The notes beneath the pieces were generated by a model. It was not told where the DNA came from. It saw only the letters and a program-made list of their open reading frames with translations, and ran no database searches. Positions 1,117 through 9,989 of a stretch of DNA of 64,000 nucleotides are shown here, piece by piece; the first letter of the stretch is position 1, and every line of letters starts with the position of its first letter. Origin of the DNA: Thermoanaerobaculia bacterium (GTDB taxonomy: Bacteria; Acidobacteriota; Thermoanaerobaculia; Multivoradales; UBA5704); assembly GCA_035544895.1 (NCBI GenBank), contig DASZZM010000009.1:3797-67796 (forward strand), read 5' to 3'. The translations under genes were made by a program, and so were the position numbers.

Positions 1117-2196
1117 ATGAAGCCACCCAGCCACCCATCCCGCAGCAAGATCCTGTTCATCTGCGGGTCGCTCAACCAGACCACGCAGATGCACCAGATC
1201 GCGCGGGAGCTGCCCGAGCACGACCACTTCTATACTCCCTACTACGGGCACGGCACGATCGAAGCGCTGCGCCGCGCCCGCATGCTCGAGTTCACCGTCC
1301 TCGGCTACAAGCTGCGCCAGCGTTGCCTCGACTACCTCGCCCGCCACCGGCTGCCGCTCGACGTGCACGGCAGGGCGCGCGCCTACGACCTCGTGCTCAC
1401 CTGCTCCGACCTCATCGTGCCGCGCAACATCCGCCGCCACCGCGTGGTGCTGGTGCAGGAGGGCATCCTCGACCCCGCGGGACTGGCCTTTCGCCTCTGC
1501 CACGGGCTGCCGTTTCTGCCCCTCTGGCTCGCGGGAACCGCCACCACCGGCCTGTCCCACCGTTACGAGCGCTTCTGCGTGGCCAGCCATGGCTACCGCG
1601 ACCTCTTCGTGGCCAACGGCGTCCGCCCCGAGCGGATCGCGGTGACCGGCATCCCCAACTTCGACGACTGCCGGCGCTACGAGCGCAACGACTTCCCGCA
1701 TCGCCACTTCGTGCTGGTGTGCTCCTCCGACGCGCGCGAGACCTTCAAGCGCGACGACCGGCGCGCCTTCCTCGAGCGCTGCCTGGCGATCACGGGTAGC
1801 CGGCAGCTCATCTGGAAGCTCCATCCCAACGAGAACGTCGCCCGGGCGACCCGCGAGATCCAGGAGCTGGCGCCCGGCGCGCTGGTCTACGCCAGCGGCT
1901 GCGCCGAGGAGATGATCGCCAACTGCGACGTTCTCATCACCCAGTACTCCTCGACCGCTTTCGTCGGCGTGGCGCTGGGCAAAGAGGTGCACTCCTACTT
2001 CGGAGCCGTGGAGCTGCGCCGCCTGCTGCCGCTGCAAAACCGCGCCGCGGCGCGCAACATCGCCGCCGTCTGCCGCGAGCTGCTCAGCGGCAAGCAGACG
2101 CCGGGCGCGAAGCTCCTCTGGCTGGGCGGCCGGCGCGCTGCCCGCGCCGCACGGCCTTCCCGCGTCGCCGCCCTGCTGCGTTCGAGGGTGCGTTGA
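1117..2196 (+). CDS. GT-B-fold glycosyltransferase-like protein, possibly a SpsG/PseG-like UDP-sugar hydrolase/transferase
   Basis: ATG at 1117 (MKPPSHPSRSKILFICGSLNQ...), in frame inside the longer ORF 1027-2196. It is the first gene of a co-directional cluster with SpsF-like and NeuB-like genes, matching the SpsE/F/G arrangement. Its stop overlaps the next gene's start (TTGA). The family assignment rests only on weak pattern recognition. Confidence 0.5.
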   Translation: MKPPSHPSRSKILFICGSLNQTTQMHQIARELPEHDHFYTPYYGHGTIEALRRARMLEFTVLGYKLRQRCLDYLARHRLPLDVHGRARAYDLVLTCSDLIVPRNIRRHRVVLVQEGILDPAGLAFRLCHGLPFLPLWLAGTATTGLSHRYERFCVASHGYRDLFVANGVRPERIAVTGIPNFDDCRRYERNDFPHRHFVLVCSSDARETFKRDDRRAFLERCLAITGSRQLIWKLHPNENVARATREIQELAPGALVYASGCAEEMIANCDVLITQYSSTAFVGVALGKEVHSYFGAVELRRLLPLQNRAAARNIAAVCRELLSGKQTPGAKLLWLGGRRAARAARPSRVAALLRSRVR

Positions 2197-3053
2197 GGAT
2201 CCTGGTCGTCGTCCAGGCGCGGATGGGATCGACCCGGCTGCCCGGCAAGATCCTCCTGCCGCTCGCCGGGGCGCCGATGCTGAGCCGGCAGATTGAGCGC
2301 ATGCGCGCCGCCGCGACGCCGTTCGAGCTGGTGGTGGCGACGACCCACGATCCTGCCGACGACGCGGTCCACGACCTGTGCCGCCGGCTCGGCGTGCGAT
2401 CGACCAGCGGCCACCCCACCGACCTCCTCGACCGCCACTACCAGGCGGCGCGGCAGGCCGGGGCCGAGGTGGTGGTCAAGATCCCCTCCGACTGTCCGCT
2501 GATCGACCCTGACGCGATCGATCGCGTGCTCGGTTACTACCTGCGCCAGGCCGGAAGCTACGACTTCGTGAGCAACCTGCACCCGGCGAGCTGGCCCGAC
2601 GGCAACGACGTCGAGGTCCTGCCGTTCGCCATCCTGGAGACCGCCTGGAAGGAGGCCGCCCGGCCGCTCGAGCGCGAGCACACCACCCCGTTCGTCTGGG
2701 ACCAGCCGGAGCGCTTCCGTGCCGGCAACGTCCTCTGGGAGACCGGCGAGGACTTCTCGATGAGCCACCGCTTCACCGTCGACTATCCTGAAGACCATGC
2801 CTTCGCGGCGGCGGTCTTCGACGCCTTGTGGACGCCCGCCCGCCCGGTCTTTCCCCTGGCCGAGATCCTCGCGCTGCTCGACGCCCGGCCCGAAATCCTG
2901 GCCGTAAACCAGCGCTACGCCGGAGTCAACTGGTACCGCCACCACCTGGGAGAGCTCGCCACCGTCGCTCCCTCCCAGACCCGCTCGCCCGCGCCGGCGG
3001 CGGCGGGCCAGGGAAGCCCGCGCGATCGCCGAGAGGCGGAGGCGGGCCGGTGA
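2193..3053 (+). CDS. Acylneuraminate/sugar cytidylyltransferase family protein (SpsF/NeuA/PseF-like)
   Basis: N-terminus MRILVVVQARMGSTRLPGKILLPLAGAPML is the hallmark of this family. It has a TTG start overlapping the upstream stop, and its own stop overlaps the next GTG (GTGA). Confidence 0.75.
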   Translation: MRILVVVQARMGSTRLPGKILLPLAGAPMLSRQIERMRAAATPFELVVATTHDPADDAVHDLCRRLGVRSTSGHPTDLLDRHYQAARQAGAEVVVKIPSDCPLIDPDAIDRVLGYYLRQAGSYDFVSNLHPASWPDGNDVEVLPFAILETAWKEAARPLEREHTTPFVWDQPERFRAGNVLWETGEDFSMSHRFTVDYPEDHAFAAAVFDALWTPARPVFPLAEILALLDARPEILAVNQRYAGVNWYRHHLGELATVAPSQTRSPAPAAAGQGSPRDRREAEAGR

Positions 3054-8278: not shown

Positions 8279-9177
8279 CGGGACCGAGCGTGCAGATCGG
8301 AGATCGCCGGGTCGGAGCGGGAGAGCCGGTCTACGTCATCGCCGAAATCGGCATCAACCACAACGGCTCTCTCGAGCTGGCCAAGAAGCTCATCGACGGC
8401 GCCTACCTCGCCGGCGCCGATGCGGTCAAGTTCCAGAAGCGGAGCCCGGAGCGCTGCGTGCCCAAGGAGCAGTGGCAGCTCGAGCGCGACACGCCCTGGG
8501 GGCGCATGAGCTACATCGACTACCGCCGGCGCATGGAGTTCGGCGAGGCGGAGTTCGCGGCCATCGACCGGCACTGCAGCGAGCGCGGCATCCGCTGGTT
8601 CGCTTCTTGCTGGGACGAGGAGTCGGTGGAGTTCGTCGAGCGTTTCGCGCCCCCCTGTCACAAGATCGCCTCGGCGTGCTTGACCGACGAGGGCCTGCTG
8701 CGCACAATGAGGGCGACTGGCCGTCCCCTGATCCTGTCGACCGGCATGTCGACCGGCGAGGAGATCGAGGAGGCCGTGGCGGTGCTGGGCCGCGACCAGC
8801 TGTTGCTGGCGCATTCGACGTCGACCTATCCCTGCCCGCCGAGCGACCTGAACCTGCGCATGGTCGAGACCTTGATCCGCATGTTCCCGGAGTGCCCGGT
8901 CGGCTACTCGGGCCACGAGACCGGCCTGGCGCCGACCTGGGCGGCGGTGGCGCTGGGCGCCACGTTCGTCGAGCGCCACATCACGCTGGACCGCGCGCTG
9001 TGGGGGAGCGACCAGGCGGCCTCGGTCGAAATCGGCGGCTTCATGCGCCTGGTCGGGAACATCCGCGACATCGAGAAGGCGCTCGGCGACGGGGTCAAGC
9101 GGGTCTATCCCGGCGAGCAGTCGCAGATCGAGAAGCTGCGCCGGGTCAAGGGGCGCGGGAGGGTGACGGCATCATGA
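8275..9177 (+). CDS. NeuB-family nonulosonic/ulosonic acid synthase (sialic-acid-synthase-like, SpsE-like)
   Basis: [56 protein letters not shown] is the NeuB/PseI/LegI N-terminal TIM-barrel signature. GAAGGAGG RBS. ATGA overlaps at both ends. Confidence 0.8.
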   Translation: [300 protein letters not shown]

Positions 9178-9989
9178 ACTGGTTGATCGTCTCGCCGGTG
9201 GTGATCGTGGCCGCGGGGATCACGCTGGTCCTGCTCGAGCGGCGCTTTCCGTACGACCGCGGGCAGCGTTTCTTGCGCGAGGGGTTCTTCACCGACCTGG
9301 TGTTCTACACGATCATCCAGAACTACGTGCTGGCGGTGGTGATCTCGGCGGTGATCCTCCGCATCGACGCCGGCACCGGGATGTCGCGGCTGCACCTGGT
9401 GTCGGGCTGGCCGATCGCGGTGCAGGTGATCTTCTTCGTGGTGACGCACGACCTTTATATCTACTGGTTCCACCGCTGGCAGCACAACAATACATTCTTG
9501 TGGCGGCTGCACGAGGCGCATCACTCGACCAAGCAGGTGGACTGGCTGGCCGGAGCGCGCTCGCACTGTTTCGAGATCCTGATCAATCAGACGGTCGAGT
9601 TCGCGCCGATGGTCTTCCTCGGCGCTCCGGCCGAGGTGCCGCTGATCAAGGGGATGGTCAGCGCGGTCTGGGGCATGTATATCCACTCGAACATCGACGT
9701 GCACACCGGCCGCCTGCAATGGGTGATCAACGGCCCCGAGGCCCACCGCTGGCACCACGCCACGGACCTCGAGCCGCCCGGGATGAATTTCAGCACCAAG
9801 ATCGCGCTCTGGGACTTCCTGTTCGGGACGGCGTACCTGCCGCGCGACGAGAGGAAGCCCACGCGCTACGGCCTGACGTACGTGGAGTTCCCGAGGGGAT
9901 ATCTGCGGCAGAACTTGTTCGCGTTCCGCCCCTTGAAGCCGGATATTCCGCCGCCGGTCGAGGATGGCGGGGGGGCGGCGGCGGGGTAG
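9174..9989 (+). CDS. Fatty-acid hydroxylase / sterol-desaturase superfamily integral membrane protein
   Basis: Histidine boxes HDLYIYWFHRWQH, HEAHH and HRWHH together with hydrophobic transmembrane segments. It is the last gene of the coupled operon. Confidence 0.75.
   Translation: MNWLIVSPVVIVAAGITLVLLERRFPYDRGQRFLREGFFTDLVFYTIIQNYVLAVVISAVILRIDAGTGMSRLHLVSGWPIAVQVIFFVVTHDLYIYWFHRWQHNNTFLWRLHEAHHSTKQVDWLAGARSHCFEILINQTVEFAPMVFLGAPAEVPLIKGMVSAVWGMYIHSNIDVHTGRLQWVINGPEAHRWHHATDLEPPGMNFSTKIALWDFLFGTAYLPRDERKPTRYGLTYVEFPRGYLRQNLFAFRPLKPDIPPPVEDGGGAAAG

Follow-up and report, generated by a model that had tools for sequence, protein, structure and literature searches.

The stretch of DNA analysed here, referred to as the window, comprises 64,000 nucleotides of a Thermoanaerobaculia bacterium (contig DASZZM010000009.1 of GenBank assembly GCA_035544895.1, positions 3,797 to 67,796 of the forward strand). 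Positions 1117-9989 of the window are filled exactly by nine plus-strand genes, here named G1 to G9. This operon is one copy of a horizontally spread and strongly conserved cassette. We tentatively propose that the cassette makes a cytidine monophosphate (CMP)-activated, amine-bearing 3-deoxy-ulosonic acid, a relative of Kdo (3-deoxy-D-manno-oct-2-ulosonic acid), KDN (3-deoxy-D-glycero-D-galacto-non-2-ulosonic acid) and sialic acid, which would then be attached to a membrane lipid on the cytoplasmic side of the inner membrane. There is a fair chance that the cassette marks an unrecognised lipid class.

Conservation and variants of the cassette

An alignment scan with G1, taking one genome per species, found the gene in 513 species. 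The best 80 G1 loci were surveyed with tblastn, flanks of 10 kb being fetched. Among these 80, the full G1-G9 order is found in Acidobacteriota, three Sorangium genomes, Minicystis rosea, several Bacteroidota and one Kapaibacterium, and the cassette proteins are 55-85% identical to those of the window across phyla. The order is present in about 55 fetched loci in all (Acidobacteriota, Myxococcota, Bacteroidota, Kapaibacteria and others), and the carriers, which live in soil and water, represent six phyla or more. About 30 further copies came from a G9-seeded metagenome scan, with G9 forming the 3' end of the cassette in nearly every metagenome locus long enough to judge. The closest named relatives of G8 belong to metagenome-assembled genomes (MAGs) of Thermoanaerobaculia and other Acidobacteriota (75-84% identity), and two G8 homologues led to loci in a 5.8-Mb acidobacterial genome and in Vicinamibacteria that have the nine genes in identical order behind a first gene of the PF03706 (LPG_synthase_TM) family, here called G0. 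All-against-all clustering of the open reading frames (ORFs) of 28 cassette loci revealed no conserved genes beyond G0-G9; polymerase, Wzx/Wzy and capsule-export genes were likewise not conserved with the cassette in this clustering.

Because the order recurs across phyla and nothing else nearby is conserved, G1-G9 can be taken with high confidence as one unit and not as two adjoining operons. An earlier prediction made from the letters of the window alone (the original prediction) had placed the transketolase, aminotransferase, dehydrogenase and hydroxylase genes in one unit with a sugar-activation core, and their synteny across phyla agrees with this. The genome-context search that it had suggested for the nine-gene order returned dozens of loci in several phyla, far more than chance could explain.

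Three kinds of variant are informative. Two Methylococcales loci (L039 and L075) carry the cassette without the transketolase-like pair, and two Bacteroidota/Kapaibacteria loci (L024 and L077) carry it without the phosphatase. In two loci of Syntrophobacteraceae (L070 and L071), G1 is accompanied by genes for a cytidylyltransferase, an aminotransferase of the DegT type, a short-chain dehydrogenase/reductase (SDR), an MsbA-like exporter and a homologue of NeuB with 51% identity. Since the transketolase pair, the phosphatase or the class of aminotransferase varies among cassette loci, a minimal core can be defined: its constant members are G1, the cytidylyltransferase, the aminotransferase, the SDR and the NeuB-type synthase.

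The predicted sugar-making core

Domains were assigned to all genes by Pfam and NCBIfam profile scans. G8 (8275-9177) encodes a short NeuB-family synthase of the type that condenses phosphoenolpyruvate (PEP) with an aldose, and covers the whole NeuB profile PF03102 (positions 1-241 of 241, E 4e-74). The protein ends at 300 amino acids and no SAF (antifreeze-like) domain was found in it. HMMER local alignments to SpsE, a short Leptospira NeuB, PseI and NeuB of Neisseria meningitidis (NmNeuB) scored 109-138 bits. By alignment, G8 keeps the NmNeuB residues E25, K53, Q55, K129, S132, Y186, H215, E234, H236 and D247, among which we take H215 and H236 to bind the metal and E25, K53, K129, S132 and D247 to make up the metal- or PEP-binding set. 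At the position of NmNeuB E134, where SpsE, PseI and the Leptospira enzyme have an acidic residue (E or D), the window protein has Cys and the clade as a whole either Ser or Cys (motif K[VI]ASA[SC]LTD); G8 thus lacks the active-site acid. The original prediction would have been undermined by an ordinary synthase; G8 falls below the family cut-offs of both TIGR03569 (N-acetylneuraminate synthase, 243 against 400 bits) and TIGR03586 (pseudaminic acid synthase, 188 against 340 bits). Judged by its residues and scores, it appears to form a distinct clade rather than being an ordinary sialic-acid or pseudaminic-acid synthase.

G7 (7634-8278) encodes a haloacid dehalogenase (HAD) phosphatase of the KdsC/YrbI family. 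Because it passes the YrbI cut-off (TIGR01670, 109.1 bits against 106.95), scores best on the model of the Bacteroides thetaiotaomicron KDN-9-phosphate phosphatase and has the DxDG of HAD motif I (DSDGVLTD), its sequence supports a phosphorylated intermediate in the predicted pathway. The scores on the KDN-9-phosphate phosphatase model (137.7 against 180 bits) and on KdsC (116 against 208 bits) are below the cut-offs. G2 (2193-3053) encodes an SpsF-like cytidylyltransferase of the KdsB/NeuA family with 286 amino acids. It matches PF02348 (CTP_transf_3) with 90.3 bits against a gathering score of 22.6 (E 2e-25) and lies below all KdsB/PseF equivalog cut-offs; its nearest solved structure is 6oew, an uncharacterised cytidylyltransferase (121 bits), followed by KdsB at about 38 bits.

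NeuB-, KdsC- and KdsB/NeuA-type enzymes found together are the signature of ulosonic-acid activation, and the catalytic motifs of all nine cassette genes are intact. Our confidence that a CMP-ulosonate is made is fairly high. The core had been predicted to be a CMP-ulosonate pathway of the phosphate-intermediate type, and the matches of the synthase, the phosphatase and the cytidylyltransferase to their families uphold this.

G1 and its flippase-like partner

G1 (1117-2196) encodes a soluble protein of 359 amino acids that has no Pfam match above threshold. Its AlphaFold model, built from 30 homologues, has a glycosyltransferase-B (GT-B) fold (predicted local distance difference test score 88.5), with which Foldseek ranked TagF-like capsule polymerases and uridine diphosphate (UDP)-sugar 2-epimerases together. 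The protein had originally been described as SpsG-like, a name for which there is no support apart from the GT-B fold; no Glyco_tran_28/PseG match was found. A profile search of the PDB gave only a marginal match, to the TagF-like polymerase Cps3D (E 0.016), in which CDLLITDYSS corresponds to CDVLITQYSS of G1. When 30 family members were scanned against Pfam with lax settings, all matches being below threshold, Glyphos_transf (PF04464) was found in 29 (best E 7e-4) and Epimerase_2 (PF02350), the best sub-threshold family, in 28 (best E 8e-6); the N-terminal half is nearer to the 2-epimerases. A full HMMER (phmmer) scan of 1.84 billion representatives yielded only 485 clusters at 50% identity. 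Across the family, the invariant residues include an N-terminal GSxNQTTQ loop, D98, QEG (114-116), D119, TGIPNFD (177-183), KxHP (234-237) and YSS. G1 represents a small, self-contained new GT-B family situated between the TagF-type transferases and the nucleoside diphosphate (NDP)-sugar 2-epimerases and equidistant from both.

The G0 protein is an MprF/HpnL-type flippase-like protein that scores 66 bits on the HpnL model, the cut-off of which is 196. Of the 80 genome loci, 25 (on 23 distinct contigs) have its gene directly 5' of G1, as do L002 and L004-L006. Full-length fusions of the PF03706 domain to G1 occur as three cluster representatives (P0242, P0246 and P0249). One such fusion, of 690 amino acids, is identical in two independent assemblies, a second is followed by cytidylyltransferase and N-terminal transketolase genes, and the third, from a low-coverage contig, is weaker evidence. 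The fusions are true in at least two lineages.

The flippase-like fusions, together with the lipid-gene neighbours of a sister clade of G1 and the neighbourhoods that are either donor-like or acceptor-like (both described below), lead us to read G1 as probably a lipid head-group transferase that uses a CMP-sugar.

Two other composite proteins were met in the family. P0248 (637 amino acids) appears to combine G1 with part of a class-III aminotransferase, and P0324 (909 amino acids) appears to combine G1 with a downstream N-terminal transketolase segment. They may be read-through artefacts or further fusions.

The sister clade of G1 and its lipid context

The members of a tight sister clade of G1 (L026-L086) share 75-94% identity and come from Planctomycetota, Desulfobacterota, NC10, Verrucomicrobiota, Nitrospirota and one betaproteobacterium. 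There is no NeuB near its members and their neighbours are not sugar genes. Instead, the clade is accompanied by a fusion of a fatty acyl-AMP ligase (FAAL), an acyl carrier protein (ACP) and an 8-amino-7-oxononanoate-synthase-type domain (14 loci), an extended SDR (22 loci) and a protein of about 373 amino acids resembling GCN5-related N-acetyltransferases (GNAT) (20 loci), as well as by exporters of the ABC-2 and MsbA-like kinds, a protein of the radical-SAM/SPASM type and, in some cases, an EptA-like transferase. We take the functions of these neighbours to be those of a ceramide pathway, namely acyl-ACP synthetase, ACP, serine palmitoyltransferase (Spt), CerR and bCerS. On the serine-palmitoyltransferase models the cut-off is not reached (303 bits against 640). 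The FAAL-ACP-oxoamine-synthase fusion is 61-84% identical across the phyla concerned, which suggests that the lipid gene cluster has spread horizontally and recently. Published work (PMC11334938) reports Spt-like genes from Planctomycetota, Verrucomicrobiota, Desulfobacterota, Myxococcota and Bacteroidota.

The Syntrophobacteraceae join the two contexts. Their G1 orthologues are 90-92% identical to one another, and those of L070 and L071 stand beside the NeuB-type sugar module while their relatives stand beside SDR and GNAT genes. One orthologue is thus found beside either a donor-like or an acceptor-like module, as would be expected of an enzyme that joins the two. The acceptor is not encoded by the cassette; if the analogy to the sister clade holds, the leading candidate would be a long-chain-base lipid resembling ceramide, an assignment in which our confidence is low.

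Other lipid-related genes were seen near G1 homologues. In the Vicinamibacteria loci L004-L006, a second operon (12621-18127, minus strand) converges on the cassette. It is headed by a G1 paralogue (52% identical) and encodes a Gfo/Idh/MocA oxidoreductase, a PseF-like cytidylyltransferase, a PhyH dioxygenase, a DUF3419 protein and a methyltransferase. DUF3419 is presumably the family of BtaA, the betaine-lipid synthase, and a DUF3419 gene also lies 5 kb 3' of G9 in L098. A squalene-hopene cyclase gene is found directly 5' of G1 in L079 (7524-9644) and L059, two related deltaproteobacterial loci, and in none of the other loci (2 of 86). A hopanoid link was considered and set aside, the cyclase being beside G1 in these two closely related loci only; it is kept as a minor alternative below.

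The transketolase-like pair

G3 (3050-4135) and G4 (from GTG at 4320 or ATG at 4329 to 5282) encode the two subunits of a split transketolase-like enzyme. G3 is the thiamine diphosphate (ThDP)-binding N subunit (PF00456, Transketolase_N, E 4e-28) and G4 carries PF02779 (Transket_pyr, E 4e-31) and PF02780 (Transketolase_C, E 2e-16). Their nearest solved structures are the two chains of the split transketolase of Carboxydothermus hydrogenoformans, the N chain 6yak for G3 (176 bits) and 6yaj for G4 (123 bits).

Residues were compared among the family members of the fetched loci (34 loci for G3 and 31 for G4), and R318, S345, H416, D424 and R474 of human transketolase were mapped by alignment. The pair keeps the ThDP motif GDGEL...DRN, the KGH and WHP histidines, the cofactor Glu (GI[AC]EQ) and the GPTHQ histidine. 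The histidines of SGHPGG and EWHG, which we take to be H37 and H258 of the human enzyme, are replaced by Phe in all 34 G3 loci, and the equivalents of R318, S345, H416, D424 and R474 are all lost in the 31 G4 loci. In the G4 family THAG has become VPG, GEDG has become (A/G)NG, the arginine of LGR has been deleted, that of the N-terminal ATR is missing, and DADLSKST is replaced by TAENRAxIR, a new conserved motif. Presumably R318, S345, H416 and R474 bind phosphate, D424 reads the C2-hydroxyl of the acceptor and determines stereochemistry, and H37 and H258 hold the C1-hydroxyl of the donor.

Because the phosphate-binding and donor C1-hydroxyl residues are replaced throughout the family, an ordinary two-carbon transfer on a keto-sugar phosphate seems unlikely. 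The idea of a transketolase making an unusual keto-sugar phosphate, raised as a question in the original prediction, is not supported in view of this loss of substrate residues. The pair is also dispensable, being absent from the Methylococcales cassettes. On the evidence of these residues, G3/G4 are best understood as a transketolase descendant that has become a ThDP carboligase with its own, new pocket for substrates; they should not be classed as a sugar-phosphate transketolase. With the sugar-phosphate site and two donor histidines lost, the acceptor is probably non-phosphorylated and the donor possibly of the pyruvate or hydroxypyruvate type. As some cassettes have no such pair, we place it as an optional tailoring step.

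The proposed tailoring enzymes

G5 (from GTG at 5279 or ATG at 5324 to 6670) encodes a class-III aminotransferase resembling glutamate-1-semialdehyde (GSA) aminomutases (PF00202, Aminotran_3, 153.7 bits, E 8e-45). The closest model is the GSA-aminomutase-like PRK06209 (405 bits against a cut-off of 486), and HemL gives 240.6 against 527. G5 is a class-III enzyme, as predicted, but cannot be called an aminomutase on these scores, both of which lie below the cut-offs. Its solved relatives are GSA aminomutases (204 bits), then the aminopentol aminotransferase FumI and the GenB sugar C-6' aminotransferases, and so include enzymes acting on sugar C-6' aldehydes (GenB) and on an amino-polyol lipid (FumI). 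The aminotransferase of L070 shares the DegT family with KdnA of Shewanella. G6 (6685-7566) encodes a classical SDR that reaches no equivalog cut-off (adh_short E 2e-40; E values for adh_short and adh_short_C2 range from 1e-40 to 1e-50).

G9 (9174-9989) encodes a membrane di-iron hydroxylase (PF04116, FA_hydroxylase, E 1e-27) with three histidine boxes (HRWQH, HEAHH and HRWHH) and three to four N-terminal hydrophobic segments. The nearest named model is OlsE, on which it scores 127 bits against a cut-off of 475. OlsE hydroxylates the ornithine head group of ornithine lipid (PMC12971839). Stand-alone homologues of the FA_hydroxylase type had no conserved neighbours in nine loci.

L166 has the phosphatase, NeuB and hydroxylase genes on their own. 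There, a gene (5715-6776, minus strand) for a GT2 protein above the threshold of Glyco_transf_21 (the ceramide glucosyltransferase family) lies 1.7 kb 5' of the phosphatase gene, with an M50 peptidase gene between the two.

Proposed pathway and alternative readings

The following pathway is proposed, with low confidence in the order of its tailoring steps, which is drawn by analogy. G8 would join PEP to an aldose phosphate, and G7 would then remove the phosphate. A hydroxyl group, probably the terminal CH2OH freed in this way, would be oxidised to a carbonyl by G6. Where the transketolase-like pair is present, the G3/G4 ThDP enzyme may add a two-carbon unit to the carbonyl made by G6 before transamination, after which G5, as a class-III (omega-type) enzyme, would convert the carbonyl into an amine. 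G2 would form the CMP-sugar, and G1 would hand the sugar to the lipid acceptor with release of CMP. In those relatives that have G0, this flippase-like protein would move the product outward. Finally, G9 may hydroxylate the lipid or its head group, as OlsE does with ornithine lipid.

Several observations weigh against parts of this proposal. G0 is not beside G1 in the window, nor in several Acidobacteriota loci, and no acceptor-lipid genes were found near the cassette in the window or in any locus with the full cassette. The ceramide-type naming of the sister-clade module rests on family-level matches below equivalog cut-offs, the step order is taken from analogy only, and the roles given above to the transketolase residues are assumed. 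In two rare split arrangements (L150 and L166) G9 remains with G7 and G8, that is with the phosphatase and NeuB genes, and not with G1, so that G9 may act on the sugar moiety and not on the lipid.

The main alternative is a conventional nonulosonic or Kdo-like pathway for a surface glycan, be it lipopolysaccharide (LPS) core or O-antigen, capsule or glycoprotein, in which G1 would be a hydrolase/2-epimerase of the NeuC/LegG/PseG type that frees the aldose and the glycosyltransferase would be encoded elsewhere. Epimerase_2 is indeed the best sub-threshold family of G1 (E 8e-6, 28 of 30 members), and the gene set of L070 and L071, with its LegC/PseC-like DegT aminotransferase, looks legionaminic-type and would need a hydrolase; however, the DegT enzymes KdnA and BtrS also use free sugars. 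Fusion to a flippase domain would be unexpected for a soluble NDP-sugar hydrolase, and the cassette already has a KdsC-type phosphate route, which in known pathways replaces that hydrolase. The sister clade stands among lipid genes without NeuB, the cassette has no Wzx/Wzy, polymerase or capsule exporter, and 55-85% identity across phyla is unusual for surface-antigen genes. We therefore consider this alternative unlikely. LPS, capsule or glycoprotein had also been named as the target in the original prediction, but the G0::G1 fusions, the ceramide-type neighbours of the sister clade and the lack of polymerase, Wzx/Wzy and capsule-export genes make a membrane lipid the likelier one, a conclusion in which our confidence is moderate. 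If a lipid is accepted, the same sugar might still be placed on lipid A, the inner core or a hopanoid, as a decoration comparable to 8-amino-Kdo (Kdo8N), Ko (D-glycero-D-talo-oct-2-ulosonic acid) or aminoarabinose. The carriers are all diderm, EptA-like and MsbA-like genes lie beside the sister clade, and two associated proteins have nearest named models with a hopanoid link, G0 scoring 66 bits on HpnL and the extended SDR beside the sister clade 142 bits on HpnA; the squalene-hopene cyclase lies directly 5' of G1 in L079 and L059. Against this, both scores are far under their cut-offs, and the cyclase adjoins G1 in only two of 86 loci, which are closely related. Sorangium cellulosum is said to be without LPS and rich in sphingolipids, as Keck and colleagues reportedly found in 2011, and many carriers, such as Bacteroidota and Thermoanaerobaculia, are not hopanoid producers to our knowledge. 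We regard a lipid A, inner-core or hopanoid acceptor as rather improbable.

Two further readings depart from the proposed sugar pathway altogether. One involves no glycosyl donor: the ThDP enzyme and the omega-type aminotransferase would form a 2-amino-1,3-diol or amino-polyol, sphingoid-like or solute-like, which the cytidylyltransferase would activate and a TagF-like G1 would join in a phosphodiester. In biocatalysis, the use of a transketolase and then an omega-transaminase is an established way of turning aldehydes into 2-amino-1,3-diols, and the loss of the sugar-phosphate site from the transketolase-like enzyme, the TagF-type motifs of G1 and the presence of FumI, with its amino-polyol lipid substrate, among the solved relatives of G5 would all suit such a scheme. 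The pair is not central, however, as the otherwise intact cassettes L039 and L075 are without it, and the NeuB, KdsC-type and KdsB/NeuA-type set signals ulosonic-acid activation; the products of the KdsB/NeuA family are CMP-sugars and not CDP-alcohols. This leaves the amino-diol scheme very improbable. The other supposes that two unrelated operons, one of transketolase, aminotransferase and SDR genes and one of NeuB, phosphatase and cytidylyltransferase genes, are neighbours by chance. Signals could in principle lie in the G3/G4 gap (about 190 nt) and in the 67 nt before G7, as an unrelated operon with an internal promoter and terminator would demand, but promoter-like and terminator-like motifs within the operon are no commoner than in shuffled sequence, the G3/G4 gap is a lineage-specific repeat insertion (see below), and the interleaved gene order is kept in about 55 loci across phyla. 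Chance adjacency is effectively refuted.

The proposed transfer of an amino-ulosonic acid to a membrane lipid can be widened into a bolder reading, possible but doubtful: an unrecognised class of membrane lipids found in many phyla, with an amino-ulosonic head group in the manner of gangliosides or the Kdo-lipid A junction, which a GT-B enzyme would attach, an MprF/HpnL-type domain would flip and a descendant of transketolase would tailor in its sugar. If true, an undescribed acidic amino-sugar lipid would be present in the envelopes of many environmental diderms, among them the soil-abundant Acidobacteriota, the LPS-lacking Sorangium, Bacteroidota and methanotrophs, and would bear on outer-membrane architecture and charge, on resistance to antimicrobial peptides and on lipid biomarkers. 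Two kinds of enzyme would also be new: GT-B proteins that take a CMP-sugar as donor and a lipid as acceptor, and a ThDP carboligase that derives from transketolase but has a different substrate pocket, the latter of interest to amino-polyol biocatalysis. Some carriers can be cultured, namely Sorangium spp., Minicystis rosea DSM 24000 and perhaps Methylobacter tundripaludum, for which the fetched locus comes from a MAG assigned to the species, so the question is directly testable.

Gene calls, repeat element and surroundings of the operon

The G+C content of the window is about 70%, which makes lists of ORFs noisy. Genes were called from third-position GC profiles, frame analysis and inspection of start codons, and a public contig with an identical stretch from G5 to G9 and beyond has concordant gene calls, including that of G6. 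These calls and the Pfam and NCBIfam matches bear out the nine co-directional genes and domain families listed in the original prediction. Its statement that all were translationally coupled is true of some junctions only: four or five of the eight are overlapping, with 4-nt overlaps at G1/G2, G2/G3, G7/G8 and G8/G9, and also at G4/G5 if G5 starts at the GTG at 5279. Gaps separate G5 from G6 (14 nt), G6 from G7 (67 nt) and G3 from G4 (about 185-193 nt).

A G+C-rich repeat of about 90-150 bp occurs as two tandem copies in the intergenic leader 5' of G1 (741-975, plus strand), and a third copy, which aligns with both of these, lies between G3 and G4 (4150-4310, plus strand). The repeat contains an internal hairpin, and its core, GGGGCGTCCCCTTCCCCC, is found at 772, 857 and 4198 (three observed, 0.06 expected). 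In relatives the junction of the two transketolase genes is a 4-nt overlap, and in the window the repeat sits at this place. It looks like a small mobile or repetitive extragenic palindromic (REP)-like intergenic element that has split a formerly overlapping G3/G4 pair, and the gap is a lineage-specific repeat insertion. A riboswitch or other known RNA in the leader or the G3/G4 gap was considered and rejected: an Rfam scan of both found nothing near any gathering score, and the predicted fold of the gap is not more stable than those of shuffled sequences (z = -1.2).

The 590 nt 5' of G1 are intergenic and are bordered by a divergent gene for a helix-turn-helix (HTH) regulator (1-525, minus strand). 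Between this gene and the operon leader is a long, near-perfect inverted repeat (649-719), whose Rfam matches are weak and spurious and which may be the terminator of the regulator gene or an operator. On the other side, 26 nt 3' of G9 and on the same strand, lies G10 (10016-11686, 556 amino acids), with a signal-peptide-like N-terminus and weak propeller repeats of the YncE/hydrazine-synthase-beta type. Homologues of G10 are found elsewhere within two related loci; a place as tenth member of the cassette was ruled out, as its position is not kept in other loci. Further downstream, a CAP12/Pycsar-type TIR-domain protein gene (11794-12510) and two pairs of PIN toxin and ribbon-helix-helix (RHH) antitoxin genes (about 12614-13259 and 13347-13975, minus strand) form a small island of defence and toxin-antitoxin genes (11794-13975). 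It is followed by a tandem pair of genes for large BNR/sortilin-Vps10-type repeat proteins (13999-18397; 726 and 688 amino acids), which are unrelated to the cassette.

Comparison with known systems

The core of the cassette is a recognisable variant of the phosphate-intermediate CMP-ulosonate pathways. Like the B. thetaiotaomicron KDN-9-phosphate synthase and phosphatase, and like animal NANS, NANP and CMAS, it combines a NeuB-family synthase with a YrbI/KdsC or HAD phosphatase and a CMP-sugar synthetase. It differs from these sialic acid and KDN pathways in that G7 and G8 fall under every equivalog cut-off, G8 has no SAF domain and has Ser or Cys at the position of E134, and the cassette has in addition an SDR, an aminotransferase, a ThDP enzyme, a membrane hydroxylase and a new GT-B protein.

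In the biosynthesis of Kdo8N in Shewanella, the dehydrogenase KdnB and the aminotransferase KdnA act on free Kdo before CMP activation. The logic of that route is like that of the cassette, with an ulosonic acid, dephosphorylation, oxidation of a terminal alcohol, transamination and activation with CTP, and we infer by analogy that the sugar route may parallel it. The enzymes themselves are non-homologous: an SDR in place of an iron alcohol dehydrogenase, a class-III in place of a DegT aminotransferase, and a NeuB-type in place of a KdsA-type synthase. The split transketolase Rif15A/B of the 3-amino-5-hydroxybenzoate (AHBA, aminoshikimate) pathway is used with an oxidoreductase, an aminotransferase, a HAD phosphatase and a PEP-condensing synthase, a toolkit akin to that of the cassette. 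G3/G4 are, like the split transketolase of C. hydrogenoformans (6yaj/6yak), a two-subunit ThDP enzyme of the short, human-type transketolase lineage; they differ from split transketolases in having lost the equivalents of H37, H258, R318, S345, H416, D424 and R474 throughout the family.

G0 and G1 resemble MprF and HpnL in the arrangement of a PF03706 membrane domain fused to, or beside, a cytoplasmic enzyme that adds a head group. The catalytic partner of G0 is a GT-B protein, however, and not a tRNA-dependent DUF2156 domain as in MprF, and the donor is presumably a CMP-sugar rather than an aminoacyl-tRNA. WaaA, KpsS/KpsC and the TagF-type CDP-glycerol transferases are GT-B proteins at the cytoplasmic face that use a cytidine-nucleotide donor and a lipid-anchored acceptor, and the same is proposed for G1. 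WaaA, which acts on lipid A, and KpsS/KpsC, which act on phosphatidylglycerol, depend on CMP-Kdo. With the TagF family G1 has the C-terminal motif and KxHP in common, though no family threshold is reached.

The functions of ceramide synthesis known from Caulobacter, Bacteroidota and Myxococcota (Spt, bCerS and CerR) form the same set as those beside the sister clade of G1, but are not found beside the cassette. The Caulobacter systems for sphingolipid head groups, CpgABC and Sgt1/2, use enzymes that differ from those of the cassette, and we know of no ulosonic acid among bacterial sphingolipid head groups, those known to us being phosphoglycerate, hexose, hexuronate and inositol phosphate. A full-text search of the literature found no paper describing this gene set. 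Nor did it match any paper in which such a core is combined with an SDR/aminotransferase pair, a remodelled descendant of transketolase, a membrane hydroxylase and a GT-B protein of a new family linked to a flippase-like domain.

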